Position numbers and translations under genes: made by a program. DNA of 55,501 bases, from contig MGJU01000013.1 in assembly GCA_001794435.1 (NCBI GenBank), positions 157,196 through 212,696 of the forward strand, in the 5' to 3' direction. The stretch's first letter is position 1, and the number at the start of each line of letters is the position of its first letter. Positions 3,121-54,143 of the stretch are shown piece after piece. The notes beneath the pieces are model-generated. The model did no database searches, was not told the DNA's origin, and saw only the letters and a list, made by a program, of their open reading frames with translations. The DNA is from Candidatus Yanofskybacteria bacterium RIFCSPHIGHO2_02_FULL_43_17 (GTDB lineage: Bacteria > Patescibacteriota > Minisyncoccia > 2-02-FULL-40-12 > GWA2-44-9).

Positions 3121-3200
3121 TAACATTGTTACATTGTTCAGCCGCTACGCGGCTCATTACTATATTGCTAACAATCCAACAACTTAACAATATAACAGTT
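3121..3200. repeat. 8-nt-period ATTGTTNN / NNAACAAT inverted array element with central GC hairpin
   Basis: attgttac attgttca, then gccgc-tac-gcggc hairpin (3141-3153), then reverse-oriented aacaat/caacaa/taacaat units; same unit family as 17931-18045 and 47347-47380. Confidence 0.6.
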
Positions 3201-10921: not shown

Positions 10922-12497
10922 AGATGAAAAATGATTGCCCTATCTTATCAACCGGTTTATACAACGCCAGCCAATTCAAACCAGGATCTTTTCTTTGGTT
11001 GCTTAATAGTTGCATACGGATTAACAAGAAAGTATTAACGGCATACCTGCCTTTCGGCTCCCGCCACCAGCCGGAATCATCGGCCATCATAAAATTCTTC
11101 ACTCCATAGTATTCGGGGCTTGAATTTTTCCACGAATAAACAACTTTAGTATCCGGATTTTCCGCTTGATATTTCCCCAGCCGCTTCAAATCCTGCCCCC
11201 ACTCAACATTGGAATCATCCAAATATTTATACCCGTTTTCCGGCCCCCCGACAAGTTCATTAAAATAGGACATGTGGTCAGGATAAGCGCGGACCGCCGA
11301 AGATATTTGCCAAAGGCCTAAAATCATAATCGCAATCATTCCCGCCCTTATGCTTGTTTTATAATTTCGATATTTCGATATTTCGATATTTCGAAATGTT
11401 TCAGTTATCCCGCCGGCATAAAGAATTAAAAACGGATAAATCGGCAAAATATATCTGATGCTGATATCGTGGGCCTTTATGCTTGTGACAAAAGTAAAGG
11501 AGATCACCGGCAGAAACACGAACACCTTGCCCCAACCGTCCATCTTTATTTTTTTATAAAATAAAATTGAGGTCACAAACACGATAAGGGCGGGGATTGG
11601 TGTTTTTATTACAAACGCTTCCAAAAAGTAGTACCACCAACCGTCAGGCGAGAAATTGCCATTCAGATAAAAATTATAGCCGGGCTTCCAGTCGGCGTAA
11701 ATTGTTCTTAATCCTTTTATATAAAATCCGAGATCAGAAGGCATTAAATAAATGAAATAAAGAATGATAAAAGCCGGGACAATGGCAATCAAAGAAAAGT
11801 TGGCCAACCGACGTATCTTTGTATTGATCTCCCCTCCGCACCGCCATGCGTAAACAAGGATAAACAAAGAGATCACGGGCAGAAACACGATAGCAGAAAA
11901 TTTTGAACCTAGCGTCAAGCCGAGAAAAATACCAGAAAAAACCAGTTGTTTCTTATCGTTGAGCTTGATGAAGCGCCATAAATAGTAAAATGTTATAAAT
12001 GAAAAAGCAGCAAGAGCTAGATCGGTTGTAACAAACTGGGCATTAGCGATAATGACGGGCATAAAGGCATACAGAAATAAGGATAAAAATCCCGCCTTGC
12101 GACTAAATATTTCTGAAGCCCATTTATAAACATAAAAACCAAGCAAAACAGAGATAAGCATCACCGACAGCCGACCCCACAACAGCAACTTGTCCATATT
12201 GTTGGAAGATAGGAAATTTTGGCCAAAGGCCCACTCGTTTCTGATCGGTCCGATTAAATTGGGGTCTTTATCGTTAAATTTAAAATCCATAAAAAGTAAA
12301 GGAAAAGAGGCCAACAATTTTACTAGCGGAGGATGTTGGGGGTTTAGAACAACCTGGCCTGTTTTCCAGTAAGAATATCCGCTTGGAAGATGGGTTATTT
12401 CATCAGTTGCCGGACTGAAATTCTGCGCGCTGAAAAACGGTAGCAGAAAAACGACACTCAATAAAACGATAACGACCGCCTTGTAATACTTAAACAT
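10911..12497 (-). CDS. GT39/GT83 family (PMT/ArnT-like) lipid-carrier-dependent glycosyltransferase
   Basis: 528-aa polytopic ORF; N-terminal loop DEITHLPSGYSYW...NPQHPPLVKLL typical of PMT_2/ArnT enzymes; 11-nt overlap with downstream gene. Confidence 0.7.
   Translation of the reverse strand: MFKYYKAVVIVLLSVVFLLPFFSAQNFSPATDEITHLPSGYSYWKTGQVVLNPQHPPLVKLLASFPLLFMDFKFNDKDPNLIGPIRNEWAFGQNFLSSNNMDKLLLWGRLSVMLISVLLGFYVYKWASEIFSRKAGFLSLFLYAFMPVIIANAQFVTTDLALAAFSFITFYYLWRFIKLNDKKQLVFSGIFLGLTLGSKFSAIVFLPVISLFILVYAWRCGGEINTKIRRLANFSLIAIVPAFIILYFIYLMPSDLGFYIKGLRTIYADWKPGYNFYLNGNFSPDGWWYYFLEAFVIKTPIPALIVFVTSILFYKKIKMDGWGKVFVFLPVISFTFVTSIKAHDISIRYILPIYPFLILYAGGITETFRNIEISKYRNYKTSIRAGMIAIMILGLWQISSAVRAYPDHMSYFNELVGGPENGYKYLDDSNVEWGQDLKRLGKYQAENPDTKVVYSWKNSSPEYYGVKNFMMADDSGWWREPKGRYAVNTFLLIRMQLLSNQRKDPGLNWLALYKPVDKIGQSFFIYEF
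11363..11396. repeat. Octamer tandem array (ATTTCGAT)x4 ending in palindrome atttcgaaat, inside CDS
   Basis: atttcgat atttcgat atttcgat atttcgaa at; translated FRNIEISKYRNYK within the GT39 gene. Confidence 0.85.
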
Positions 12498-12514
12498 TCT
12501 TACGTCATTTTAAT

Positions 12515-12544
12515 CAAAAAACCTTGTTTTTACAAGGTTTTTTG
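12515..12544 (-). terminator. Intrinsic terminator after 12583-13788
   Basis: caaaaaaccttgt-tttt-acaaggttttttg, 13-bp stem with flanking T/A runs. Confidence 0.8.
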
Positions 12545-12582
12545 TCAATTACTTATTTACTAAATTACTCAATTACGGCTAT

Positions 12583-13788
12583 TTATATTGCTTCCAAATA
12601 ATTCCCGTGCACCCAAGCGTCTTGACCTTCAAACGTTATCTTGTGCCATACACCGTCTTGAGCCAAACTTGTCACCACGTCGCCAGCGGTAAGCTGTCCT
12701 AAAACCGCACTTGCAGTACTGGCTGACACTCTGACATTGAGATAACCGGCGCTTGATACAACCTTATATTGATTGGGTGTCGGAACAGAAGAACTGGCTG
12801 AAAAAACACCTCTTGTATAATCCGGTATTTGATTTACTGAAGCATAATCAGTCCCCTTTGGATACCAATTAAATTCGTTGGTGTTGATGCAGAATACTTT
12901 CTTGAAAAATTCCGGATCATCGGCAACGGCCTGCTCGCCGGTCGTATTGACCCAATGGAGCATGCCGGTATCTTCTCCAGTCGTTTCCACGCCATAAACC
13001 TTGGGATCTTCCGTTTCGCAGTTTCTAAAAAGACCCGAAGTTACAAATACGTCTCTTGTTGCAGAAGTAGTGCCCTTAACCTTATCAAATCCCAGATGTC
13101 CGTAAAATCCGAATATAACAGGATTCAAGAATAATCTTTTATAACCGTGGGGATTAACGATATAAACATCCGGATCATCGGAACCGGCGGCGCTAACCAC
13201 GTCACCGTCATTTAAACTCACTGACTCCAAATTTACGAAACCTCTTGAAGCCGGGGTTGCCTGCCCTGAGCTTGTCGAAGGAGCTGGCGTAGGAGTTGCT
13301 GAAACGGCAGGACTTGTTGTGGGAGTAGTAGTTGGTGTTGGTGTTGGAGTACTTGTGATCCCGCCTCCACCGCCTCCTCCTCCGCCGCCGCTGGTACCGG
13401 CAGTACCGCCGCTACTACCACAAGTCGAAGAACTAGGGGTTACTATAACGGTTTGGGTAGCTGCGGCAGTAATGGACAACCGCGATTGGGTTGGTTCACA
13501 AGTAAAGCCGTAACCGCCGCTGTTGGATAAAAGCAGTTGATCCGACGACAAGAGAACTATCGTCTGGTCGGCAGACATTGAAATGGTAATATTTGTGTTA
13601 GTAGATGTAACCTCGTCCACCTCGGAAGAACCGCCCTCTATGGTAATGTTGCCAACACCCAAAGCAAGCGTGGTATTTTGAGCGAAAGTAACAACCGCTT
13701 TTGCCTGATTGACTCCGACCAATAACAGCCCCGCCATTAAAGCGACAACAAGTAACGGCAGAGAAAAGTTAATTTTTAATGTTTTCAT
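12583..13788 (-). CDS. Secreted protein: signal peptide, poly-Gly/Thr-Pro linker, shared 135-aa module, C-terminal bacterial SH3 domain
   Basis: 401-aa ORF; G10 run plus TPTPTPTTTPTT linker; residues 192-327 paralogous to residues 49-183 of 21594-25280; C-terminus YLNVRVSASTASAVLGQLTAGDVV...WHKITFEGQDAWVHGNYL is SH3_3-like. Confidence 0.65.
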   Translation of the reverse strand: MKTLKINFSLPLLVVALMAGLLLVGVNQAKAVVTFAQNTTLALGVGNITIEGGSSEVDEVTSTNTNITISMSADQTIVLLSSDQLLLSNSGGYGFTCEPTQSRLSITAAATQTVIVTPSSSTCGSSGGTAGTSGGGGGGGGGGITSTPTPTPTTTPTTSPAVSATPTPAPSTSSGQATPASRGFVNLESVSLNDGDVVSAAGSDDPDVYIVNPHGYKRLFLNPVIFGFYGHLGFDKVKGTTSATRDVFVTSGLFRNCETEDPKVYGVETTGEDTGMLHWVNTTGEQAVADDPEFFKKVFCINTNEFNWYPKGTDYASVNQIPDYTRGVFSASSSVPTPNQYKVVSSAGYLNVRVSASTASAVLGQLTAGDVVTSLAQDGVWHKITFEGQDAWVHGNYLEAI

Positions 13789-17146: not shown

Positions 17147-19066
17147 CTATTTGATAGTTAGTTGTCGAATAAGTTCCGCTATCAACTTCCCCGTCTCCGG
17201 GTCAACGCTGGAATACTTCAGTCCTTCGTTAAGATCAATGAGCGCTTTCTCTTTGTTGTTAAGGGCGACATAAACAAGCGCGGAATTGTAGTAGACGCGA
17301 GGATTACCGGGGAGAAGTAGTTTTAATTTTTCTATATTTATTACCGTTTGAATAAAATCCCCCCGCTGTGCATAGATAACCGCCAAGTTTTGGTACGGGT
17401 AAAAAAAGCCGGGGTCAATCTCTATGGCCTTATTGAACTCTGCAATCGCGCCCTCAATGTCGCCCCTCGACTGCAATATGCTCCCGATATTAAAATGCGG
17501 CTGGGCAAAATCGTTCCCCGACCCGACGGCTTTTCTGTAATAAAACTCGGCCCGATCCATATCTCCTTGATTAAAATATCGGTTGCCAAGATTATTATTT
17601 ATCTTGATGCTGTCCGGCTCGTATTTGAGAATGTCTTTATAAAATTCGACGGGATTGCCCCATAAGACATTTCGCTGGACAGATTGATAACCAAAGAAAA
17701 GCAGGTAAGCTAGCAAGCCCGTAAGCAATAAGCCACGAAAAATTAGGTTTTTGGATTTTAAGAAATCAAACAGTTTAATCAAATAAAAAGAAGCTATGAG
17801 CCAAAAGCCGACCATCGGCAGATAAAGCCAGTGTTCGTATATTAAGGCGTTGATTGGCGTAATCCCGGAGACCATCGCCAGACCGATGAAAAACCAACCC
17901 GTTCCGAATAGCCAAATTCGGAATGGGAAAATTGTTACATTGTTAAATTGTCGAATTGTTGCACCTTCAGATTGTTGAATTGTTACATTGTTAAACCTCT
18001 CCTTCTTATACATAACAATTAAACAATATAGCAATATAGCAATGATTGTAGCACCAAGCCAGACCGGCCACTGGAACAGCGATGTATGCACCACCATACT
18101 TCGTTCCATATGAAGACCTGTGGGCACGAACAGTAAGCGGAAGTAATCAATCAGAACGTGCATAAAGGTAAAGAGGCGATAAATTATATTTTCCGAATAT
18201 GGGTTGGCTTTACTGTAGAAATTCAGAGTATTTTGAAAATTCAAAACCGTTAAGCGTAATATTCCGTAAACAGCAACAACCCCGAAATAAGGCAATGCTT
18301 CTTTAAACGCGTTCTTGACATCGAACACCTTAACGCCTGATGTCCCGCGGCCATCCAATGCCCGCCCGTCCTCTGGCGCGGTCGTTAATTTATTCTTATC
18401 GGAAAACGCGATATAAAACACCATCAAGAGAAAAGGAAATATAACTCCCGTTTCCCGGCTCAAAATCGCCAAAACAAAAGCCGCCAAAGACAAGGTTTTA
18501 AGCCACCGAAACCCTGTGGATAATCGACTTCGCAAGTCGATTATCCACAGGTAGAGGGCGAGGAGAATAAAGAACACCGACAACGGATCGCCACGGCCGG
18601 AGATATATGCAACAGCTTCGGTGTTGAGAGGATGAATAGCAAAAAAAAGCGCGGTTAAGAAGGCCACAATCTGGCCGGCATATCTTCGCAATAAAACAAA
18701 TACCAGCACTGCGTTGGCAATATGTATTGAGTTGCTTACTAAATGCCAAAGGAACGGTTTCGTTTCGGATACAACCCAATTAAGAGCAAAAGTGAAAAAG
18801 AGGAACGGTCTGTAATAGTTGCTCTGAAGTCCGATTCCAGCTAACGCATTGTTGGAAAACCAAAACTTTATACTTTCCCAATTTATTGAGTGGACGTAAA
18901 CATTGTTGATTATCCAATCATCGTCATCCCAAAAAAGCTCGTTGTTCAAGTTAAAAGAATAGACAAAACCGCCTATTACCACCAGGAATATAATCGGCAA
19001 CCATGCTTCTTTTTTATTCAGCAAGTTCATATTTATACTTTGAAAAAACCGGCCTATTCTTATCAT
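17147..19066 (-). CDS. TMTC-like polytopic membrane protein with C-terminal TPR repeats (paralog of 15210-17072)
   Basis: 639-aa ORF (alternative ATG at 19030); LFWDDDDWIINN motif, multiple TM helices, TPR repeats; contains three different mini-elements in frame. Confidence 0.6.
   Translation of the reverse strand: MIRIGRFFQSINMNLLNKKEAWLPIIFLVVIGGFVYSFNLNNELFWDDDDWIINNVYVHSINWESIKFWFSNNALAGIGLQSNYYRPFLFFTFALNWVVSETKPFLWHLVSNSIHIANAVLVFVLLRRYAGQIVAFLTALFFAIHPLNTEAVAYISGRGDPLSVFFILLALYLWIIDLRSRLSTGFRWLKTLSLAAFVLAILSRETGVIFPFLLMVFYIAFSDKNKLTTAPEDGRALDGRGTSGVKVFDVKNAFKEALPYFGVVAVYGILRLTVLNFQNTLNFYSKANPYSENIIYRLFTFMHVLIDYFRLLFVPTGLHMERSMVVHTSLFQWPVWLGATIIAILLYCLIVMYKKERFNNVTIQQSEGATIRQFNNVTIFPFRIWLFGTGWFFIGLAMVSGITPINALIYEHWLYLPMVGFWLIASFYLIKLFDFLKSKNLIFRGLLLTGLLAYLLFFGYQSVQRNVLWGNPVEFYKDILKYEPDSIKINNNLGNRYFNQGDMDRAEFYYRKAVGSGNDFAQPHFNIGSILQSRGDIEGAIAEFNKAIEIDPGFFYPYQNLAVIYAQRGDFIQTVINIEKLKLLLPGNPRVYYNSALVYVALNNKEKALIDLNEGLKYSSVDPETGKLIAELIRQLTIK
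17931..18045. repeat. 8-nt-period inverted array (ATTGTTNN)n ... (AACAATNN/AGCAATNN)n inside CDS
   Basis: eight 8-nt units at 17931-17994, seven starting ATTGT (17-nt direct duplication attgttacattgttaaa); reverse-oriented units aacaatta aacaatat agcaatat agcaatga at 18014-18045. Confidence 0.75.
18314..18388. repeat. T-hairpin element copy T2 (long, composite form), inside CDS
   Basis: cttgacatcg...ttaacgcctgatgtcccgcggccatccaatg-cccgcccgtcctctggcgcg-gtcgttaa; shares about 55 nt with T4 in opposite orientation; read as LTTAPEDGRALDGRGTSGVKVFDVK. Confidence 0.7.
18514..18550. repeat. REP palindrome copy 2, inside CDS
   Basis: Identical 37-mer; read in frame as LWIIDLRSRLSTG. Confidence 0.95.
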
Positions 19067-20624
19067 TGTTTTTAACCAAGATTATAGCATTTTCGTTAAT
19101 AAACACCACTTTCCAGTCAGAATTCCTAATTATACTTTTTAAGAACGCTTGCCCCCACGGCGTCGCGTCAGTGTGGCCGAAAAATATGAAGTTAATACCA
19201 TATTTGTTGGAAAACTCCTCCCACTTCTCTCTGTTTTCCTGCATCGGCTTGTATATCTCGCTGAAAAATTCTACTGAATATGCCTCCGGGCGGTTATCAA
19301 CGAATACTTTTTCCTCCGGCAATTTCCATATCAGATAGCCGCCAATGTCAAAATTATTGAACATAGGCCCCTCTATATTATTCTTCTTAACAAAACTAGC
19401 CGCACGTTCCAGTCCGTCTGGAACTGAAAAACCGAAAGTTTTTGATAATCTCGCCCATTTATAATAACCTCCGCTCGCCACAAAAAAAATCATAAAAACC
19501 AGAAAAACGACCAGCAACATCTTGGCCGCCCACTGAAGCCTGGCTTCTGCCTGCCTCCAGAAGCCTGGCTTCTGGAAAGCTGAAAACACATCGGTTAGCA
19601 AGATTACCATCACCGGAAAAGATGCCAGCGCGTATAAGGGCAAATTGCGAAGCATCCTGAATCCGGCATAAATAAAGAAGGTGGAAATTAAAATTTCGAA
19701 AATCCTTTCTTTTGTCTTCTTGACGGTCAGCAAAAAAGAAACAACCAGAACCGCCGTTGAGATCTTAAAAATAAAAATCGACAAATTAAAACCGAATAAA
19801 TCAGCCAAAAAAGCAAGCGTTTGGTTTTCAACAATGCTGTAACCATATTCTTTCAGGATATTAAAAGGCAGTAGCGCTCCCTGAATTCCGGCGGGATTTA
19901 TAAGAGTAGCCAATCCGATCAATCCGCCGACCAGTAACAATTTTTGTATTACGTATTTCGTATTTCGTATTATGGGATCAAATAAGCGGTCAATAAAAAA
20001 GGCCAAAAACAAGATTGGGCCGATGAAGAAATAGATGTGGAGGTTAACCCACAACAACTGCGCCAACGGCAAAAACCATAACCAAGACGGAGTTTTAACA
20101 TCGGGAGTCCCGCGGACTTCCGATGTTGTTAATTCGTATTTCGCCTTAAACAACGCGGATAAGAAAAACGCTAGTATCAAAAAACTGAAAATCTCCGGCC
20201 TCACCTCCGTCCGGGAAATAAATATAAATATTGAGAGAACGAAAGAAACAATTATTGGCCAAAAACCTACTCTAACCCCTGTGGATAATCGACTTCGCAA
20301 GTCGATTATCCACAGGGGTTTAATGGTTAAAAGCAAGAGTATAAACGTCGCCAGAACTACAAAAATCTTAAGCAAGATAAGGCCGGTGAATCCGCCCAAA
20401 TTATAGACGCCGTAAAATATTACTTCGCTTAGCCAATGATGATTTGTAAACGGAAAGTCCGGCTCGGTGAAAGAGAATAGGTTGGTTGTCGGAACACTTT
20501 TTGTCTCCCAAATTATCTCCCCTGTCTTCAAATGCCGCCCGATATCCTGGCCGATAGAATCAAAATTGTGAACCAGAAAAACGGCCAGAAGACCGAAAAG
20601 AAGAATAAAAGTCAGGAGTTTCAT
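19014..20624 (-). CDS. Polytopic membrane protein, possibly GT-C-type glycosyltransferase (function uncertain)
   Basis: 536-aa ORF with more than 10 TM helices and a soluble C-terminal domain; contains four different mini-elements in frame; overlaps the start of 17147-19066. Confidence 0.5.
   Translation of the reverse strand: MKLLTFILLFGLLAVFLVHNFDSIGQDIGRHLKTGEIIWETKSVPTTNLFSFTEPDFPFTNHHWLSEVIFYGVYNLGGFTGLILLKIFVVLATFILLLLTIKPLWIIDLRSRLSTGVRVGFWPIIVSFVLSIFIFISRTEVRPEIFSFLILAFFLSALFKAKYELTTSEVRGTPDVKTPSWLWFLPLAQLLWVNLHIYFFIGPILFLAFFIDRLFDPIIRNTKYVIQKLLLVGGLIGLATLINPAGIQGALLPFNILKEYGYSIVENQTLAFLADLFGFNLSIFIFKISTAVLVVSFLLTVKKTKERIFEILISTFFIYAGFRMLRNLPLYALASFPVMVILLTDVFSAFQKPGFWRQAEARLQWAAKMLLVVFLVFMIFFVASGGYYKWARLSKTFGFSVPDGLERAASFVKKNNIEGPMFNNFDIGGYLIWKLPEEKVFVDNRPEAYSVEFFSEIYKPMQENREKWEEFSNKYGINFIFFGHTDATPWGQAFLKSIIRNSDWKVVFINENAIILVKNNDKNRPVFSKYKYELAE
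19534..19575. repeat. 17-nt direct repeat of a palindromic unit (gaagcctggcttc) inside CDS
   Basis: ctgaagcctggcttctg at 19533-19549 and cagaagcctggcttctg at 19558-19574 (16/17 identical); translated QKPGFWRQAEARLQW. Confidence 0.7.
19944..19971. repeat. Heptamer array (NCGTATT)x4, inside CDS
   Basis: ttgtatt acgtatt tcgtatt tcgtatt; translated IRNTKYVIQ. Confidence 0.75.
20095..20132. repeat. T-hairpin element copy T3 (short form), inside CDS
   Basis: ttaacatcgggagtcc-cgc-ggacttccgatgttgttaa; read as LTTSEVRGTPDVK. Confidence 0.8.
20279..20315. repeat. REP palindrome copy 3, inside CDS
   Basis: Identical 37-mer; arms extend to 20 bp (cccctgtgg...ccacagggg, 20276-20318); read as LWIIDLRSRLSTG. 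Confidence 0.95.
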
Positions 20625-47962: not shown

Positions 47963-48328
47963 TCAAAATCCCAAGAGCCAATTCCACCATTTCTTGTAGT
48001 TCGGTGGCTCATCAGTAGAAAATTCTTGGGCTAAAGATGCCTTTTGCGGATTGAGGTCTCTATGGACGAATACCACTTCTTCGCCGGGCGCTTTATAATT
48101 CAGGCGAAGACGGGCTTCTTTTTCAAGAAATTCTGAATTTTCAATGTTTTTAATATACGCCTCAAGAGACGCATTATCCCTCTCAATATTAGTTATCTTG
48201 GCTTCTATGTCCTCTTCTTCTTTTTTTACCTCGTTCTTTTCGATCTCGACAAAAATCACCGAGAACAATATCCAAACCAGGGCAAGGGAAATAAAAACTG
48301 TAAAAAATTTAGAATTGAGGAGGTTCAT
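47963..48328 (-). CDS. Septum formation initiator (FtsB/DivIC-like)
   Basis: 121-aa ORF; N-terminal TM, coiled coil, then EKEARLRLNYKAPGEEVVF typical of FtsB/DivIC. Confidence 0.55.
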   Translation of the reverse strand: MNLLNSKFFTVFISLALVWILFSVIFVEIEKNEVKKEEEDIEAKITNIERDNASLEAYIKNIENSEFLEKEARLRLNYKAPGEEVVFVHRDLNPQKASLAQEFSTDEPPNYKKWWNWLLGF

Positions 48329-48809
48329 TTTGGATCTGTGTACCGGCCCTTATTTTATTTATGGCCTCAACTACTCCGGCCGGTGACGGAACCTTGTCAA
48401 AAGTTATCTCATTTCCCGACGGCGTCTTTATTATCAATTTTCCGTATCGGTTCATAAGCGCAGAAAAGCCGACTTGCTTAAAACTGATCTCATATATGTC
48501 GCGATAAAGAAGCTCTGTTACTGTCTGTGAAAGTGCTCCTTGTCTGATATTCAGTATCATTCTTTGGTTGGTTATGATTATGGCGTTTTTGCGCCAAAGA
48601 TATATCTTGTATAGAATGGTTAAGGTGGCTATAAGCATAACTCCGATGACGATTTCCCGGGAGTAGCCGAAAGCGTCGATTTTAAATTTAAAAAAGGTCC
48701 AGAAAACAAAACCCGTAAGCAAGGCGGACCGGATAATCGTCCCAGCTATAACAGAGCGGTGCTGCCTGATCATCTTGATTAACTTCTCATTTTCTCGCAA
48801 TGTAAGCAT
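48309..48809 (-). CDS. Membrane protein with bacterial PH (YdbS/YdbT-like) domain
   Basis: 166-aa ORF; two TM helices followed by a small beta-rich domain. Confidence 0.4.
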   Translation of the reverse strand: MLTLRENEKLIKMIRQHRSVIAGTIIRSALLTGFVFWTFFKFKIDAFGYSREIVIGVMLIATLTILYKIYLWRKNAIIITNQRMILNIRQGALSQTVTELLYRDIYEISFKQVGFSALMNRYGKLIIKTPSGNEITFDKVPSPAGVVEAINKIRAGTQIQNEPPQF

Positions 48810-48815
48810 TGGGCC

Positions 48816-48875
48816 ATTACGTATTACGTATTACGTATTTATTCGTAAATAATCCGTAATTTGTAATTCGTAATA
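48816..48875. repeat. Heptamer inverted array hairpin (ATTACGT x3 ... CGTAATN units)
   Basis: attacgt attacgt attacgt att / cgtaaat, cgtaatt, tgtaatt, cgtaata; starts 7 nt upstream of the start of 48309-48809. Confidence 0.8.
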
Positions 48876-48993
48876 AAATAATGTGATTAATAAAAAGTTA
48901 TTAAGAATTATAACAATTATCGTTGCGGTTCTGACCGCTCTAAGCATGGTGGGGTTTCTGCTCTTGCCTTTAGTATATTAAATTTATTGCCCT

Positions 48994-49017
48994 ATTACGA
49001 ATTACGGATTACGTATT
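48994..49017. repeat. Heptamer array, left boundary of the four-helix-bundle cassette
   Basis: attacga attacgg attacgt att; contains the stop codon of 49009-49386. Confidence 0.8.
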
Positions 49018-49386
49018 GTTTTTTCGGTATTTATCAAGATAAACAATAAACCCTCCGATTCTAGCACCCAATTCCTCAAGTTTTTCATTAACAAAATTAA
49101 ATTCTTCGATAGAAATGTAGCCAACAGCCAGTGCTATATGCAACTGATTCCGAGTTTCGCCAACCGAACCTTTAGACATTCTAAGAAATCTTATGAATTC
49201 GTTATTGTTACTCTTTTCAAAACCTTCCACGATGTTAGAACTAACAGAAACTACCGCCCTTCTTATTTGATCCCGCAGACCAAAATCTTTACTCCACTTT
49301 GAGTTAGAAGTTAAGTCGTATATAAATTTAGTAATTTTTAGAGCTAATTTCCAAATTGGTAACTCTTCAAATTTTTTGTATTTCAT
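49009..49386 (-). CDS. Four-helix-bundle protein (23S rRNA intervening-sequence protein family)
   Basis: 125-aa ORF; IWKLALKITKFIY, RDQIRRAVVSVSSNIVEGFE, FIRFLRMSKGSVGETRNQLHIA typical of this family. Confidence 0.85.
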   Translation of the reverse strand: MKYKKFEELPIWKLALKITKFIYDLTSNSKWSKDFGLRDQIRRAVVSVSSNIVEGFEKSNNNEFIRFLRMSKGSVGETRNQLHIALAVGYISIEEFNFVNEKLEELGARIGGFIVYLDKYRKNNT

Positions 49387-49410
49387 AATCCGTAATGCGT
49401 AATTCGTAAT
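49387..49410. repeat. Heptamer array, right boundary of the four-helix-bundle cassette (inverted relative to 48994-49017)
   Basis: aat ccgtaat gcgtaat tcgtaat; begins 1 nt after the start codon. Confidence 0.8.
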
Positions 49411-49419
49411 ATAATAATT

Positions 49420-51276
49420 CTATCTTTTTAACATTTTGAGAAAAACCTCCTGCGGCAAGTTCACCCTTCCCGCCTCTTTCATTTTCTTTTTCCCTTTTTT
49501 CTGCTTTTCCAGAAGTTTCATTTTTCTGGTTACGTCGCCGCCATATAGATAGCCGGTCACATCTTTGCGCTTTGCTTTGATGGATTCACGAGCAATTATC
49601 TTGCCTCCTATCGCCGCTTGTATCGCCACCTCGAACCATTGAGGCGGAATGACCTCTTTAAGTTTCGCCGCCATTGTCCTTCCTTCGTAGTACGCCTTAT
49701 CCTTGGGGACTATCCTTGAAAATGGTTCGACGAGCTCACCGGCAATCAAAATATCCAACCGCACCAAGTCATTGACCGCCATTCCCTTCAACTCATAGCT
49801 CATCGAAGCATAGCCAGACGATACGCTTTTCAATTTATCATAAAAATCGGTTATGACTTCCGATAAAGGCATCTCATATCTCAGAAACGCGGTCTCTTTG
49901 CCAAAATAATCAGTCGCCTGGTATGTATTCCTGAATGAAGATATGAGCTCCATAACGCTACCCAAATAAGAACTTGGGGTTATTATTTCGATATCGACCA
50001 CTGGTTCGGCTATGCTTTCGATTTTAGACGGATCGGGAAGTGAAGATGCCGACTTTATTCTTACTTCTTCTCTGTCAGCAAGTTTGATCAAATATTCAAC
50101 CGAGGGTGTTGAGATTATCAGAGGCAAATCGAACTCACGCTTTAGCCGTTCCGAGATTATCTCAACGTGTAGCATACCGAGAAAACCAAGCCGGAATCCC
50201 CTGCCCAAGCCGACAGAAGATTCGGGCTCATAGATCAGAGAGGCATCCGTCAGTTTGAGTTTCCCCAAAGCATCCTTGAGTAAATCGTAATCTTCAGCGT
50301 TTTCGGGAAAAAAGCTGGCAAAGACCATCGGCTTGGGTTCCTTGTATCCTGATAAGGGCTTGAATTGCGTATTGCGTATTGCGTATTGCGTATTATTTTT
50401 AATGCGTAATTCGTAATCCGTAATGCTTAATTGAGACGTAATAGTATCGCCGACACGGATAAGTCCGGGGTCCTTGAGTCCGGTGGCTATGTAGCCGATA
50501 TTTCCGGCAGACAGTTCAGAATTTAACGTAAGTTTGGGAGCAAAGAACCCGACCTCAAGAACATCAAATTTTGCTTTCGTTGCCCAAGACGCAACCTTAT
50601 CTCCTCTTTTGAAAGCACCGTCGAACATCCTGACATAAGCAATAATACCTTTATAAGCGTCGAAGGTTGAATCAAATATAAGCGCTCCCGATTCAACCGT
50701 ATCTAATTCTTGGTACTTAATATTTGCGCTTGGCGAAGGTACTTTTTCTATCACCGCTTGAAGCAATTTTTCCACATTTGCCCCGGTCTTGCCGGACACC
50801 TCCAATATCTCATCCTGTTCTATTTCCAAAAGATACGACAGTTCCTCCTTAACTTGTGCGGTTCTGGCGTTTGGCAAATCAATTTTATTCACCGCCGGTA
50901 TTATTTTCAGTCCTTGTGTCTTGGCAAGATGAAGATTGGCAAGCGTCTGGGCCTGTATACCCTTGGAAGCGTCGACGAGAAGTATCGCCCCCTCAACCGC
51001 AGCTAGAGACCGTGACACTTCGTATGAGAAATCAACGTGTCCGGGGGTATCAATCAGATTTAAGACATAGGCCTTAGAACCTAAAACATAGTTCATCCTC
51101 ACCGGCTGCAGTTTAATGGTAATACCTCTTTCTCTCTCCAACTCCATTTGATCCAGATACTGCTCTTGCATCTTTCTTTTCTCAACCGTCCCGGTCAATT
51201 CTAAAAATCGGTCCGCTAATGTGGACTTGCCGTGATCAATATGCGCAATTATACAAAAATTTCGTACGTTATTCAT
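49420..51276 (-). CDS. lepA: Translation elongation factor 4 (LepA)
   Basis: NFCIIAHIDHGKSTLADR, DTPGHVDF, NKID G-motifs and a conserved C-terminal LepA domain; ATG at 51276 preferred over GTG at 51294; in-frame heptamer-array insert at 50364-50424. Confidence 0.95.
   Translation of the reverse strand: MNNVRNFCIIAHIDHGKSTLADRFLELTGTVEKRKMQEQYLDQMELERERGITIKLQPVRMNYVLGSKAYVLNLIDTPGHVDFSYEVSRSLAAVEGAILLVDASKGIQAQTLANLHLAKTQGLKIIPAVNKIDLPNARTAQVKEELSYLLEIEQDEILEVSGKTGANVEKLLQAVIEKVPSPSANIKYQELDTVESGALIFDSTFDAYKGIIAYVRMFDGAFKRGDKVASWATKAKFDVLEVGFFAPKLTLNSELSAGNIGYIATGLKDPGLIRVGDTITSQLSITDYELRIKNNTQYAIRNTQFKPLSGYKEPKPMVFASFFPENAEDYDLLKDALGKLKLTDASLIYEPESSVGLGRGFRLGFLGMLHVEIISERLKREFDLPLIISTPSVEYLIKLADREEVRIKSASSLPDPSKIESIAEPVVDIEIITPSSYLGSVMELISSFRNTYQATDYFGKETAFLRYEMPLSEVITDFYDKLKSVSSGYASMSYELKGMAVNDLVRLDILIAGELVEPFSRIVPKDKAYYEGRTMAAKLKEVIPPQWFEVAIQAAIGGKIIARESIKAKRKDVTGYLYGGDVTRKMKLLEKQKKGKKKMKEAGRVNLPQEVFLKMLKR
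50364..50424. repeat. Heptamer inverted array inside lepA
   Basis: (attgcgt)x4 att - atttttaat region - gcgtaat tcgtaat ccgtaat; translated ITDYELRIKNNTQYAIRNTQ. Confidence 0.85.
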
Positions 51277-51314
51277 AAGATAAAGAGGTCCCACGAGGAG
51301 CGGGACCTGACTAC

Positions 51315-51587: not shown

Positions 51588-54143
51588 TTATTCCAGCTTA
51601 AATTTCAACTCCAGGTCTTTGTTAAATTCCCCATAATATAGGAGGGAGTCGCCTACTTGGAACTCGAAATTGTCAACCTCAAGACCCGGCTGTTTTTGTA
51701 CATAAATATTATTGCTTTGCACGGATACGACATATTCCAGCTCAACCGTCTTTTGCTTTCCAGGGTCAGTGATAAGCCAAAAAGCAAAACCTGTTTTGCC
51801 TGATTCGCTATAGGTGCTAACTCCGTTTTCATTGTCAATCCCGTTAGAGGTCCGACCCGCCTGGAAGGCGTGGTCGGCAGACGACCCCGACTCAAGTCGG
51901 GGCGTCTTACCTCTAACGGGATGAAAGCCGGATTCCAGTTTTAATAAATCGCCGTCCTGCTTAAAGTCGCTGCCGGAATAATTTATGAGTGGTTTGTACC
52001 CCGGATCTGAATTGCCGGAGATGCTGACCAATTCCGAACCTTCTGGAACAAGCACGCGGACATAAGCCGGATTTTGCTTGTTATAAAATCCGTATCTTGT
52101 CGAACCGCCGTTGTGCTGGCGCGTAAGCTCAATCTTGTGTACCATCCTGCCTTCCTCAAACCGAACCGACACTTTAATGGAGTTATCGGTCACTATGTCG
52201 GTCTTTGAACCCTTTACGTTTGTAAATGTAATCATCAAGTAGTCCTCGTCAGTATTCTTGATAAGTCCGCCGAATCCCTTATCGGCCACGAATTGTTCTA
52301 AGTTCAGGTCTTTGAAGTACATCAACACGTCTTTTTTGTCCAACCCCGATATGAATACACTAAATATGTCCAGCCACTTACCAGGGTCCGATGAGTTTAT
52401 TCTTTCTAAAAGTTTAGGCGCCATATCTAAAACGACTTTCTTGGGTTGTTCCCGGTTGTCTCCGTATTCCACTTCCGCCTGAATGGTAGACAAGAAGTTC
52501 TCATCATTTATCGAAAAGCCGTACTCCGGCATTTCTATCGGCCCGACCACTTTCAATATGTCTGATATCATTCTCGGGCTCATTGTTATAACACCGTCAA
52601 TATCGTAGCCGGCTTCTTTATTAAAAAATTCCATGGTTTTCTGCGCAGAGACAGAAAAATCAATAAACCAATTGGCGTCTCTCATCCCCCAATTCGGAGT
52701 TATGTGCTGCAGAGGTTTGGGCGGGATGATATTTTCTTTAAGCTGTCCGTCCAGATTATAAACGTCGTCAACCAAAAAGCCGGCAAGACGCCCGTCCTTG
52801 AAGGTTACAACGGCATAAGTTCCGGGAAACCCGCCAGTCGGCCTCAATTCGCTGTTGTTTTGGAACAGGATTAGATATTTCTTTGTACCGTTTGAGCCGA
52901 GTAAGTTCTCCAAAAAACTGGTGTATTCCACGGCATCGGAGACAATGCTTCTAAATTCGGGGAGTTTGGATTGAAATTCCAAGAATGATTCCCTTTTATC
53001 CTCCGGCAAGGCTTCAGCGTTTACATCGGATAGAAGAGCGCTGGCTTTTGATAAGTTCTTGCTTGATGAGGCAAATGATTTTTTGAGGTCGCTGAAAATG
53101 TTCTGATGTCGAACATCATTATCTGTGACAACGTCCGACATCATTAAAATTAAACTCGTTTTCGACAACGCCGTAACCGCCTCCGACATTGACTTTCCCG
53201 CTTCAGCAAGCAGTTTTCCCGCCTCAACAAGGTTTTTTGCCGATTTCAATTTACCGGCGCCCGGCAGTTCGGCAAACAAAGAAGTAATGCTGGCCCCCAT
53301 AAAGTTCAGGCTTTCACCTGCTTTTGAAAATTCTCCATACGCTTCGGCGAAATCGTTTGATGCCGCTTCAAAATCAAACACTCTCAAGCTCTCGTTGGCT
53401 TGTTCGAGATTAGCCACCGCCAAATTGCTTTCTCTCAATACTTCGTTTTTTACGCTTATTCCGTACTGACCAAACGAAGTAAATATCAGAGCAGAAAAAC
53501 CAACGACGCCAAAGGTCAAAAAATTATTCCGTCTGAACAAATAATTTTTTGACCGGATTAAAAATTCTGGATTAAAAATTCCCGTAATTCGTAACTCATA
53601 ATTTTTGTTCCAACCTTGCCGAGAATTCTCGGTAGCTTTGTTGTCGGAATTTCTCGCGTACTTCGCCCAGCTTTCTATTTCCGATGACGCCGCTCCTGGT
53701 ATTTTTTCCGTCATCATCCCCAAAGAAATGGGATCTATCTTTCTCGGCTCCCCGATTATTCCCTCGCCGTGAACCGGCGCAACCCGTTGATTTATTTGAG
53801 AAAGTATCGCTTGGTAGGGATCGGCAACTTCCGATTTTTGCTTCGCAAAAATCGGGCGGTATCTCGGCCTTCCGGCCTTTTTCTTCATAACCGTTTCCCC
53901 GCCGATACTTTTTATTTCTTTTGCCACATCGAGGGTCTGGCTTAAAACCGCCTCGAATTCTTCTCGCGGAGAGAAGAATTTTTCATCCGCCCGACTCGAT
54001 AGTTCAGAAGGTTTGGTTTTAACTGAAGCAAGATTTACCACTGGCGCCACCTTCGCAATTTTCCGTACATCAACCAAGCCCGAATCATCTACGGGTTTAA
54101 TATCGAATAGCGCTTTCAGAATATTCGGTTTTTTATCAGACAC
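51588..54143 (-). CDS. DUF4012 domain protein
   Basis: 851-aa ORF; central TM; FQNNSELRPTGGFPGTYAVVTFKDG motif characteristic of DUF4012; heptamer units at 53582-53602 in frame (NYELRIT). Confidence 0.7.
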   Translation of the reverse strand: MSDKKPNILKALFDIKPVDDSGLVDVRKIAKVAPVVNLASVKTKPSELSSRADEKFFSPREEFEAVLSQTLDVAKEIKSIGGETVMKKKAGRPRYRPIFAKQKSEVADPYQAILSQINQRVAPVHGEGIIGEPRKIDPISLGMMTEKIPGAASSEIESWAKYARNSDNKATENSRQGWNKNYELRITGIFNPEFLIRSKNYLFRRNNFLTFGVVGFSALIFTSFGQYGISVKNEVLRESNLAVANLEQANESLRVFDFEAASNDFAEAYGEFSKAGESLNFMGASITSLFAELPGAGKLKSAKNLVEAGKLLAEAGKSMSEAVTALSKTSLILMMSDVVTDNDVRHQNIFSDLKKSFASSSKNLSKASALLSDVNAEALPEDKRESFLEFQSKLPEFRSIVSDAVEYTSFLENLLGSNGTKKYLILFQNNSELRPTGGFPGTYAVVTFKDGRLAGFLVDDVYNLDGQLKENIIPPKPLQHITPNWGMRDANWFIDFSVSAQKTMEFFNKEAGYDIDGVITMSPRMISDILKVVGPIEMPEYGFSINDENFLSTIQAEVEYGDNREQPKKVVLDMAPKLLERINSSDPGKWLDIFSVFISGLDKKDVLMYFKDLNLEQFVADKGFGGLIKNTDEDYLMITFTNVKGSKTDIVTDNSIKVSVRFEEGRMVHKIELTRQHNGGSTRYGFYNKQNPAYVRVLVPEGSELVSISGNSDPGYKPLINYSGSDFKQDGDLLKLESGFHPVRGKTPRLESGSSADHAFQAGRTSNGIDNENGVSTYSESGKTGFAFWLITDPGKQKTVELEYVVSVQSNNIYVQKQPGLEVDNFEFQVGDSLLYYGEFNKDLELKFKLE
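53582..53602. repeat. Solo heptamer units inside DUF4012 gene
   Basis: ccgtaat tcgtaac tcataat. Confidence 0.6.

Follow-up and report, generated by a model that had tools for sequence, protein, structure and literature searches.

Why does a gene of the 23S rRNA intervening sequence (IVS) protein family stand in an mRNA operon, closed in by two mutually inverted arrays of tandem heptamers, one of which carries its stop codon? The question is raised by a 55,501-nt stretch of contig MGJU01000013.1 of Candidatus Yanofskybacteria bacterium RIFCSPHIGHO2_02_FULL_43_17, here called the window, in which a four-helix-bundle (4HB) gene encoding 125 amino acids occupies 49009-49386 on the minus strand. 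We read positions 48982-49419, gene and arrays together, as a 438-nt selfish gene cassette of the IVS kind that sits in an mRNA operon instead of in rRNA, and put the probability of this reading at roughly 60%. The cassette is one instance of a design common to the whole PF05635 family and to GxxExxY genes. Coordinates refer to the window unless a comparison locus, numbered with an L, is named.

Gene and arrays as one inserted unit

The open reading frame (ORF) belongs to the 'S23p / 23S rRNA IVS protein' family, with profile-search scores of 110.5 bits for PF05635 (cut-off 33.8) and 105.6 bits for TIGR02436 (cut-off 24), and is the sole 4HB gene in the window. On the gene strand it is preceded by lepA, which ends in TAG (49420-49422), and the entire spacer between that stop and the 4HB start codon is the 5′ terminal inverted repeat (49387-49419, minus strand), which reads aattattat-ATTACGA-ATTACGC-ATTACGG-ATT and continues directly into ATG. 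The plus strand of its array (49387-49410) reads aat ccgtaat gcgtaat tcgtaat, that is, ATTACGN repeated 3.4 times and abutting the ATG. The gene then ends as AAT ACG TAA T CCGTAAT TCGTAAT agggcaataaat, where ACG-TAA-T opens the 3′ terminal inverted repeat (48982-49017, minus strand). The stop codon (49009-49011; tta on the plus strand, TAA on the gene strand) belongs to the first inverted unit, the third in the plus-strand reading of the array (48994-49017, attacga attacgg attacgt att), as the first-pass annotation had stated in placing the stop inside the 3′ array. Outward, the 3′ repeat extends as far as the stop codon of a small convergent ORF.

The three-unit pattern ATTACGNATTACGNATTACG, with up to two mismatches allowed, matches the window 10 times, against 0.00 matches in 100 dinucleotide-preserving shuffles, and Tandem Repeats Finder reports period-7 arrays at 48816-48839, 48850-48874, 48994-49017 and 49386-49410. 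The central claim of the first-pass annotation, that the 125-aa gene lies between mutually inverted heptamer arrays, is thus backed alike by the sequence itself, the pattern search and Tandem Repeats Finder. Its further claim that the gene lies in the loop of a potential long stem also stands, as a prediction: when the sense RNA of 48975-49425 is folded, the two arms pair and leave the ORF in the loop in both the minimum-free-energy and the centroid structure.

Comparison with related loci shows that the cassette at 48982-49419 is an insertion. Close relatives (L081-L088, ~75-82% nucleotide identity) share the lepA-4HB arrangement, and in them the 5′ arm is 100% identical while the flanking genes are ~82% identical. 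No 4HB gene was found within 2.5 kb in 80 further metagenome lepA loci. At two of them (L090 and L093) just 8-9 nt lie between the lepA stop and that of the homologous convergent small ORF, from which it follows that the 438 nt between these stops in the window were inserted. The left boundary is the lepA stop and the right boundary that of the small ORF; the scan gave lepA relatives of 48-70% amino-acid identity only, and these boundaries are gene ends, not a base-level empty site.

Nucleotide alignments of cassette copies, within one genome and between genomes, show that inheritance and duplication involve the gene together with both of its arrays. Two copies in one Moraniibacteriota UBA12141 genome (L010 and L024) are 90% identical from -42 to +39 around the ORF and unrelated outside, and homology to a third copy in another genome (L037) ends at the same points, the outer edge of terminal inverted repeats of ~40 bp. 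The variable N positions of the units are identical between these copies. Homology that is confined to -42 to +39 and includes identical N positions implies arrays that move along with the gene, not a target that was there before it. The inverted repeat extends past the arrays, as TTATTATTTAG-(TTAACGNN)3 ... (NNCGTTAA)3-CTAAATAATAA. Pseudogene copies with internal stops or truncations, recognized by eye (L026, L031, L037, L062, L064 and L077-L079), keep the flanking arrays.

The insertions follow the direction of their hosts. Among homologue loci, the upstream neighbour is co-directional with the 4HB gene in 56 of 68 and the downstream neighbour in 60 of 68, and the median gaps to them are ~50 nt and ~40 nt, so that the spacers are taken up by the arms. 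In 44 of 44 loci whose two neighbours agree in direction, the 4HB gene has that direction too (p = 1e-13). From these arrangements the cassette looks promoter-less and reliant on read-through from the host, or else it may insert strand-specifically. No sigma-70-like promoter was found in 48600-49700, which is weak evidence as promoters of the candidate phyla radiation (CPR) may differ.

The host of the window's copy is not an rRNA gene: Rfam matches in the window are three tRNAs only, and conserved 16S/23S motifs were present in 0 of 88 homologue loci. The gene stands among lepA (EF-4; 49420-51294, minus strand, co-directional and upstream; TIGR01393, 805 bits), the small ORF, a bPH-domain protein and DivIC, with no reverse transcriptase among them. 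The largest protein groups shared among the 80 homologue loci that we compared resemble glycosyltransferases.

An AlphaFold2 model of the 125-aa protein has four long helices (pLDDT 94). Its best Foldseek matches are Xcc0516 (2GSC; TM 0.82, rmsd 1.7) and BT_0352 (2RLD), structures also matched in a sequence search (five chains each), followed by the accessory protein Avd of diversity-generating retroelements (DGRs), alone and in the DGR ribonucleoprotein (4DWL, 8UB7; TM ~0.75). For S23p itself a homopentamer toroid has been described (Lin 2006, as cited in PMC4990558). The profile search returned only PF05635 and weak bAvd matches for the protein, and no HUH/Y1 (IS200/IS605-like) transposase domain. 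At E < 1e-5 a search gives 917 relatives of the protein, with 68-75% identity in many cases, and ~70% identity is kept across CPR classes, indicating strong purifying selection.

The small convergent ORF (48883-48981, plus strand) encodes a hydrophobic 32-aa peptide, V/MINKKLLRIITIIVAVLTALSMVGFLLLPLVY as translated by hand, with no Pfam match. Its amino acids are identical in L083 despite many synonymous changes, and judged by this conservation it looks like a real, unannotated membrane micro-protein.

The bracket in other genomes

The 80 fetched genomic loci of homologues come mostly from Patescibacteria (CPR), from many classes, and a few from bins labelled Spirochaetia, Omnitrophota and Firestonebacteria. 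Near-identical 4HB proteins occur in bins labelled as different phyla. Nearly all 80 loci have two to four tandem units just before the ATG and two to four inverted units at or after the stop, the general unit being RTTA(A)CGR. Counting only strict cores (TTAACG, TTACG, TTGCG, TTAGCG), at least two lie within 60 nt upstream of 59 of 73 intact homologues, and at least two inverted cores at or after the stop of 52 of 73. Successive cores stand 8 nt apart in 53 cases and 7 nt apart in 23, and a purine precedes the core in 158 of 161 cases. As in the window, the codons that delimit the gene tend to be made of array: the commonest start context is xRTT-ATG-A and the commonest stop context CGT-TAA-C. 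The translations carry the same trace, with relatives' C-termini often reading ...SVIRNP, ...QIRNS or ...EFTIR (by eye), that is, translated CCGTAAT- or CGTTAA-type arrays, and some N-termini starting LRIM.., the upstream array read into the ATG.

A stricter detector, which demands at least three units of one period, finds matched arrays on both sides of 34 of 69 genes and of 3 of 222 control ORFs from the same loci; an array at one end is present in 13-18% of control ORFs. Since this detector misses arrays that mix 7- and 8-nt units, we added measures based on duplex energy and core counts. The flank-to-flank duplex energy has a median of -29.5 kcal/mol for 4HB genes versus -15.4 kcal/mol for controls (p = 1e-16). 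Core type co-varies between the arms, with 44 concordant loci (36 TTAACG/TTAACG, 8 TTACG/TTACG) and 3 discordant, and a gene's own arms align better with each other than with arms of other loci (score 36 vs 26, p = 2e-8; the median arm alignment has 31 columns and 26 matches). The expectation of the first-pass annotation that members of this gene family would be systematically flanked by inverted arrays is well supported by these counts.

Small GIY-YIG ORFs (85-100 aa) lie near several 4HB cassettes (L005 3893-4150, L021 713-976, L052 1918-2202, L016 983-1285 and L319 3631-3930). Three of the four whose flanks were read (L005, L021, L052) are enclosed by plain inverted repeats without arrays, a third case of a small nuclease-type ORF within a long stem-loop. 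A ~65-nt repeat before the GIY-YIG gene is present in one to three copies among otherwise identical contigs from different samples (L319-L326; compare L319 3497-3631 with L321 3497-3715).

The bracket is also present in distant relatives. PF05635 genes of 30-43% identity are carried on plasmids of Nostoc, Calothrix, Geminocystis, Pseudanabaena and Riemerella, and we sampled eight distant loci across the similarity ranking. Inverted arrays stand on both sides of the gene at L329 (GGGAAAA / CCCTTTT), L330 (AGGTTCA / TGAACCT), L332 (GGGAAAA / TTTTCCC), L333 (AGTCAGG / TCTGACT, with the stop codon again within the array) and L336 (GGGTGTA / TACACCC); such brackets made of unrelated heptamers were found in Nostoc, Calothrix, Geminocystis and Riemerella. 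Nostoc PCC 7120 and Nostoc punctiforme are examples of cyanobacteria with a bracketed copy. Arrays are sparse around these genes: the 30 kb surrounding two of them hold only 7 and 3 heptamer arrays, two of which are the gene's own arms. On a plasmid of Nostoc sp. C052 (L337), AGTCAGG / CCTGACT arrays bracket an unrelated stretch of ~400 nt with a 97-aa ORF (12252-12706); it lies ~2.3 kb from a 4HB cassette that has this heptamer as well, and its arms stand in the opposite relative order.

Gene-less hairpins, translated arrays and GxxExxY genes

Hairpins with similar arms and no gene accompany the cassette. One lies at 48816-48882, where the gene strand reads ATTACGA ATTACAA ATTACGG ATT, then a loop, then ACGTAAT three times. 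The first-pass annotation had noted this further array hairpin ~120 nt away, and its folding is confirmed, with z-scores of -3.6 and -3.8 on the two strands for 48816-48874. The hairpin takes up all the space from the small ORF to the bPH gene, a spacer that reads as ~10 nt in L090, and homology to L083 stops exactly at the hairpin's edge. The bPH-domain gene (48309-48809), at whose start the hairpin stands, is present in the window and in L090 and L092 and missing in the closest relatives L081-L088 (L083 4510-4738 was compared). Elsewhere, L010 1660-1850 has the terminal inverted repeats of the neighbouring cassette around ~105 nt of AT-rich filler instead of an ORF, and short hairpins built from the local unit type are present in L018, L020 and L064.

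The window's five strict arrays all cluster around the 4HB gene, at distances of no more than 1.6 kb. The picture drawn in the first-pass annotation, of gene-less arrays scattered through the genome, is not borne out by our data on array dispersal, which cover 55 kb of this genome and 3-kb flanks of others. Strict TTA(A)CG arrays number 55 in the cassette zones of 4HB loci. Outside the cassettes there are 20 in 384 kb of 4HB loci and 0 in the 448 kb that come from CPR lepA loci lacking the gene, in keeping with a link between array abundance and gene, but other-unit arrays are also ~4 times denser around 4HB genes (13.8 vs 3.6 per 100 kb), so that the type of region confounds part of this contrast.

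Viral DNA gave no trace of the element. No 4HB relative was found in the IMG/VR viral collection. Three tandem copies of TTAACGNN occur on 50 viral contigs, and we rejected these as traces: permuted cores are about equally frequent (32 and 71 contigs) and the 4HB gene is present in 0 of the 50 loci, so that the viral TTAACGNN arrays are ordinary tandem repeats and uninformative on the element. Several small viral contigs (L175, 13.7 kb; L189, 13.4 kb; also L179, L181 and L190) have inverted terminal repeats of at least 160 bp whose first ~60 nt, at the genome ends, hold TTAACG-type 8-mer arrays. In the window, 3123-3197 holds an array hairpin (ACATTGTT twice ... TAACAATA-type units) with an inner GC hairpin between convergent genes, terminator-like in look.

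Arrays are also translated. Read by hand, sense ATTACGN has no stop in any frame and translates as ITNYELR, and inverted NCGTAAT has TAA in all frames. Of the three genes in which the first-pass annotation had placed solo arrays, only lepA holds a clear one, and there it is a hairpin and not a solo array. It lies in frame at 50364-50441 (minus strand; left arm ATTAAGC ATTACGG ATTACGA ATTACGC, right arm ACGCAAT four times; over 50364-50431 the count is ATTGCGT x4.4, then inverted CGTAAT three to four times), in the linker between domains II and III, and encodes ...ITDYELRIKNNTQYAIRNTQ...; the linker is 36 aa long here versus 17-19 aa in most of 80 other lepA genes. The change of CGTAAT to CGCAAT in the right arm removes the TAA stops and lets the arm be translated, with the consequence that the hairpin folds only in the antisense strand (-32.2 vs -5.8 kcal/mol). 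The other two sites match the pattern only with two mismatches and are related at best: 19942-19971 (ATTACGT ATTTCGT ATTTCGT ATTA; unit ATTTCGT) lies in frame in ORF 19014-20624 and encodes IIRNTKYVIQK, and 53581-53604 (cccgtaattcgtaactcataat) is a degenerate two-unit remnant in the DUF4012 gene, encoding NYELRIT, with the pattern match at 53583-53602. Further in-frame arrays stand at 1201-1232, 2282-2323, 11364-11394 and 17929-18047, in two GT4 glycosyltransferase genes, a PMT_2 gene and a TPR-protein gene, with units including GTATTTT, ATTTCGAT x4 and NATTGTT x8 with inverted AACAAT; the array in the TPR-protein gene is a hairpin and encodes 40 aa.

The lepA linker is one of two insertion hot spots in 80 other CPR lepA genes, the other being a beta-turn of the G domain (GITIK/DTPGH). 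Inserts at these sites are in-frame tandem 7-8-mers of many unit types, with or without inverted copies. They reach ~50 aa (L089-L168; e.g. L117 2660-2806, L104 1068-1256, L136 2675-2800, L098 341-499).

At the G-domain site, the lepA genes of L081-L087 contain a whole GxxExxY ORF (PF13366/TIGR04256, PDDEXK_3) in frame, bracketed by inverted CGCAGAA-type tandem arrays. In L083 it occupies 1840-2309, between ...QPVRMKY and ...NLIDTPGHVDF of a 774-aa lepA product; 51069-51088 in the window's lepA is the empty site for this insertion. GxxExxY ORFs are small (~120 aa), with the units CGCAGAA, CACTGAG and CACAGAG, and we found them in CPR (L083, L012) and Bacteroidota (L341, L342). CACAGAG-type inverted arrays flank the genes of Bernardetia and Bacteroides on both sides, and a Treponema copy has a plain inverted repeat. 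GxxExxY and 4HB cassettes have in common a small ORF bracketed by inverted tandem arrays; the GxxExxY protein differs in its unrelated PD-(D/E)XK nuclease fold, and its arrays in having another core and in being stop-free in both orientations. GxxExxY ORFs have also been found in rRNA IVSs.

Possible mechanism, alternatives and known relatives

A selfish IVS-type cassette would work as follows. The unit is a 4HB ORF, seemingly without a promoter of its own, within terminal inverted repeats of ~35-40 bp, each made of a short AT-rich outer part and three to four tandem RTTA(A)CGR units (ATTACGN here), with a mutated last unit (ATT-ATG-A) as the start codon and the TAA of the first inverted unit as the stop codon. 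Read-through from lepA would transcribe the cassette, and in the transcript the arms may pair into an interrupted stem of ~25-30 bp that closes off the ORF, with the AUG at its base. Such a stem is a candidate substrate of RNase III, as in the IVSs of Coxiella, Leptospira and Salmonella; cleavage would make the insertion nearly harmless and would release a stem-capped ORF RNA. In the DNA, these arms may be the ends of the mobile unit. As partner of the repeat units, the presumably pentameric Avd-like protein would be the likeliest choice; it may bind the arrays for autoregulation, for propagation or for both, and five identical subunits facing tandem units would make a suggestive match. Nearby, the cassette leaves or spawns hairpins that have its arms and no gene. 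In coding sequence, the survival of a copy depends on stop-free arms, and the lepA hairpin, with its change of CGTAAT to CGCAAT, fits such decay.

Several observations weigh against this reading. Movement, RNA processing and binding of the protein to the arrays are steps that we infer, and to our knowledge the PF05635 family has neither a catalytic motif nor a catalytic function assigned to it. No partner gene (transposase, reverse transcriptase or nuclease) is conserved near the 80 homologues, and no consistent target-site duplication was found at the AT-rich flanks of L010, L024 and L037. The denser other-unit arrays around 4HB genes, noted above, count here too. The variable N positions of the units are mostly non-complementary between the arms, and the arm mismatches comprise 81 G:U-compatible and 89 A:C cases without strand asymmetry, so that they give no sign of selection on the sense-RNA structure. 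The copy inside lepA has lost its sense-strand hairpin, and RNase III cleavage there would do harm. Three of the distant loci depart from the inverted bracket: on Pseudanabaena galeata plasmid pPg_01 (L331, 45865-47024, between cas6 and cas4) AAAAGCT x12 upstream and AAAAGCC x10 downstream are direct arrays, and L334 and L335 have a downstream array on one side only. A stem cannot explain all of this, and together with the non-complementary N positions and the unbiased mismatches these loci favour recognition of the units themselves.

Some of these facts suit a host gene that is useful and vertically kept, for instance in defence or RNA metabolism, with the arrays as cis-regulatory sites through which the pentamer regulates its own gene and without any mobility. 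The arrays abut the start codon like the TAACTGA arrays of Beggiatoaceae (PMC4679880), the left arm is 100% conserved between the window and L081-L088 next to neighbours at ~82%, the protein is under strong purifying selection, and the copy between cas6 and cas4 recalls earlier reports of PF05635 genes wedged recurrently among cas genes (PMC3936711). Autoregulation, however, is compatible with selfish spread, and much of the comparison speaks against an absence of mobility: the gene is missing at the same site in 80 other lepA loci, has several copies per genome whose identity is limited to the cassette, stands in unrelated contexts with no conserved partner gene, exists as pseudogenes (by eye) and gene-less derivatives, and has near-identical proteins in bins labelled as different phyla. 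We regard a purely host-serving gene as unlikely. An account in which the hairpins come first, as REP- or terminator-like furniture of the genome, and the 4HB gene an independent mobile ORF that targets the arrays by homing into hairpin loops, earns even less of our confidence. It draws on the gene-less array hairpins of many units that are common in CPR DNA, at the lepA hot spots and elsewhere in the window, on the one-ended arrays of control ORFs, and on the position of rRNA IVSs at helix tips (PMC4990558). A pre-existing target does not account for copies in one genome that share identical variable positions and whose homology ends at the outer arm edge, for the TTA(A)CG core kept across many CPR classes alongside a ~70%-identical protein, for the lack of TTA(A)CG arrays in 448 kb of CPR DNA without the gene, or for start and stop codons that are array units themselves.

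The remaining explanations fare worse. A DGR accessory gene of the Avd type, with the arrays belonging to the DGR, would be consistent with the fold match and with weak matches to PF22296 (bAvd) and NF033474; these matches score 17.6 bits (cut-off 40) and 27.6 bits (cut-off 80), the adjacent genes include no reverse transcriptase, and none of the families that many of the 80 loci share is a reverse transcriptase. On these grounds we rejected DGR membership as very improbable. Chance low complexity or slippage unrelated to the gene could point to the viral contigs, where tandem 8-mers of any core are similarly frequent (TTAACG on 50 versus 32 and 71), but it is ruled out, to the point of being negligible, by the empty shuffles, by the control ORFs (3 of 222 with matched inverted pairs, versus 34 of 69 genes), by the duplex energies and the co-variation of the arms, and by a bracket that recurs in distant phyla where the 30-kb surroundings hold just 3-7 arrays, two of them the gene's own.

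We return to the selfish cassette and its closest known counterpart. ORF-bearing 23S IVSs occur in Leptospira, Coxiella burnetii, Brucella and Haemophilus, and IVSs with S23p ORFs have been known since the early 1990s; their sporadic distribution suggests horizontal transfer, and they have long been suspected to be mobile by an obscure mechanism. The likeness to the cassette lies in a homologous S23p/PF05635 ORF inside terminal inverted repeats that form a stem, and in a size of ~430-440 nt. The IVS of C. burnetii is 428 nt long with an S23p ORF and a 28-bp terminal stem; three tandem heptamers (GACAGAT) and a degenerate fourth stand directly before its ATG, their number varying among strains, and the RNase III cut falls where the first repeat begins (PMC4990558). 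In view of these heptamers, the parallel with 23S IVSs drawn in the first-pass annotation is sound. CPR rRNA insertions also carry 23S_rRNA_IVP ORFs (10.1101/2024.02.27.582315), and a list of such insertions is given in J Bacteriol 2024 (10.1128/jb.00074-24). Unlike a 23S IVS, the cassette lies outside rRNA, in what would be an 8-9-nt spacer between lepA and a convergent small ORF, and its arms consist almost wholly of tandem units that include the start and stop codons. Another difference, as far as we found in the IVS literature, lies in the derivatives without the gene and in the copies that protein genes carry in frame.

The cassette resembles repetitive extragenic palindromic (REP) sequences, their doublets (REPINs) and the REP-associated tyrosine transposases (RAYTs) in that a single gene, one per repeat type, is flanked by an inverted short repeat that also occurs gene-less as hairpin doublets. 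The parallel, suggested in the first-pass annotation, holds for the gene-less arms in the window, L010, L018 and L020 and is not borne out for the mechanism: RAYTs are HUH/Y1 transposases with catalytic motifs, and the 4HB protein has no known ones. REPINs moreover occur genome-wide in tens to hundreds, whereas the gene-less copies seen here are few and within a few kb, and a REP is a single palindrome of ~20 nt whereas the arms here are tandem 7-8-nt units. Rickettsia palindromic elements (RPEs), like other MITE-type elements, reportedly insert in frame into protein genes, as Ogata et al. are said to have described in 2000. Like them, the arrays are short palindromic inserts that keep the frame and lie in surface loops of conserved proteins, in this case lepA, glycosyltransferases and a TPR protein. 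RPEs are single palindromes of ~100-150 bp without a known coding master copy; the arms here are made of tandem 7-8-mers, and there is a gene-bearing form. Terminal inverted repeats that bound a duplicated unit are also a property of DNA transposons and miniature inverted-repeat transposable elements (MITEs), which differ in that no transposase is encoded by or near the cassettes at the 80 loci. Avd shares the four-helix-bundle fold and is a pentamer that binds nucleic acid and reverse transcriptase (4DWL, 8UB7); identity to it is 10-13%, the scores are below the family cut-offs, and neither a reverse transcriptase nor a template or variable repeat lies nearby.

A last comparison is with short tandemly repeated repetitive (STRR)-type heptamers of cyanobacteria and with TAACTGA heptamers, which are likewise tandem, in two to six or more copies, and mostly intergenic, and which occur in the very taxa where we see PF05635 paralogues on plasmids. 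These arrays have been described as direct repeats without a gene or an inverted partner, unlike the brackets here. TAACTGA arrays, known from Beggiatoaceae, cyanobacteria and Bacteroidetes, most often stop 1 nt short of a start codon, and in Beggiatoaceae translational control has been proposed for them (PMC4679880). In the literature searched we found no link of STRR or TAACTGA arrays to 4HB genes and, except for the Coxiella heptamers, no paper that links PF05635, S23p or GxxExxY to flanking tandem arrays.

These overlaps lead us to a wider and more doubtful conjecture, to which we give a modest minority of our belief: PF05635 pentamers, and in parallel GxxExxY nucleases, may be the partners of 7-9-nt tandem arrays in general (STRR-type, Bacteroidota, CPR, rRNA IVS), each paralogue recognizing and propagating its own unit, with the bracketed cassette as the autonomous form and gene-less arrays and hairpins, including translated ones, as its non-autonomous offspring. 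If true, this would be a RAYT/REPIN-like system built on a non-enzymatic or a new enzymatic fold.

For the family as a whole, the S23p-type gene is widespread outside rRNA as a compact, sense-oriented cassette ended by inverted arrays. The unit sequence is specific to the lineage, and GxxExxY is a second IVS-type ORF family with the same design. Hairpins without a gene are left by the cassettes, some of them translated inside essential proteins, and for annotation NYELRIT or SVIRNP at protein ends, like the insertions in lepA, are to be read as translated repeat arrays. rRNA IVSs, the big families of 4HB paralogues and the puzzling heptamers of cyanobacteria, Bacteroidota and CPR come together here in one testable system, which has real potential to explain how IVS ORFs live and where some of the heptamer arrays of bacteria come from. 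The recurrence of a gene between arrays across many bacterial phyla suggests a widespread and hitherto unrecognized selfish element.

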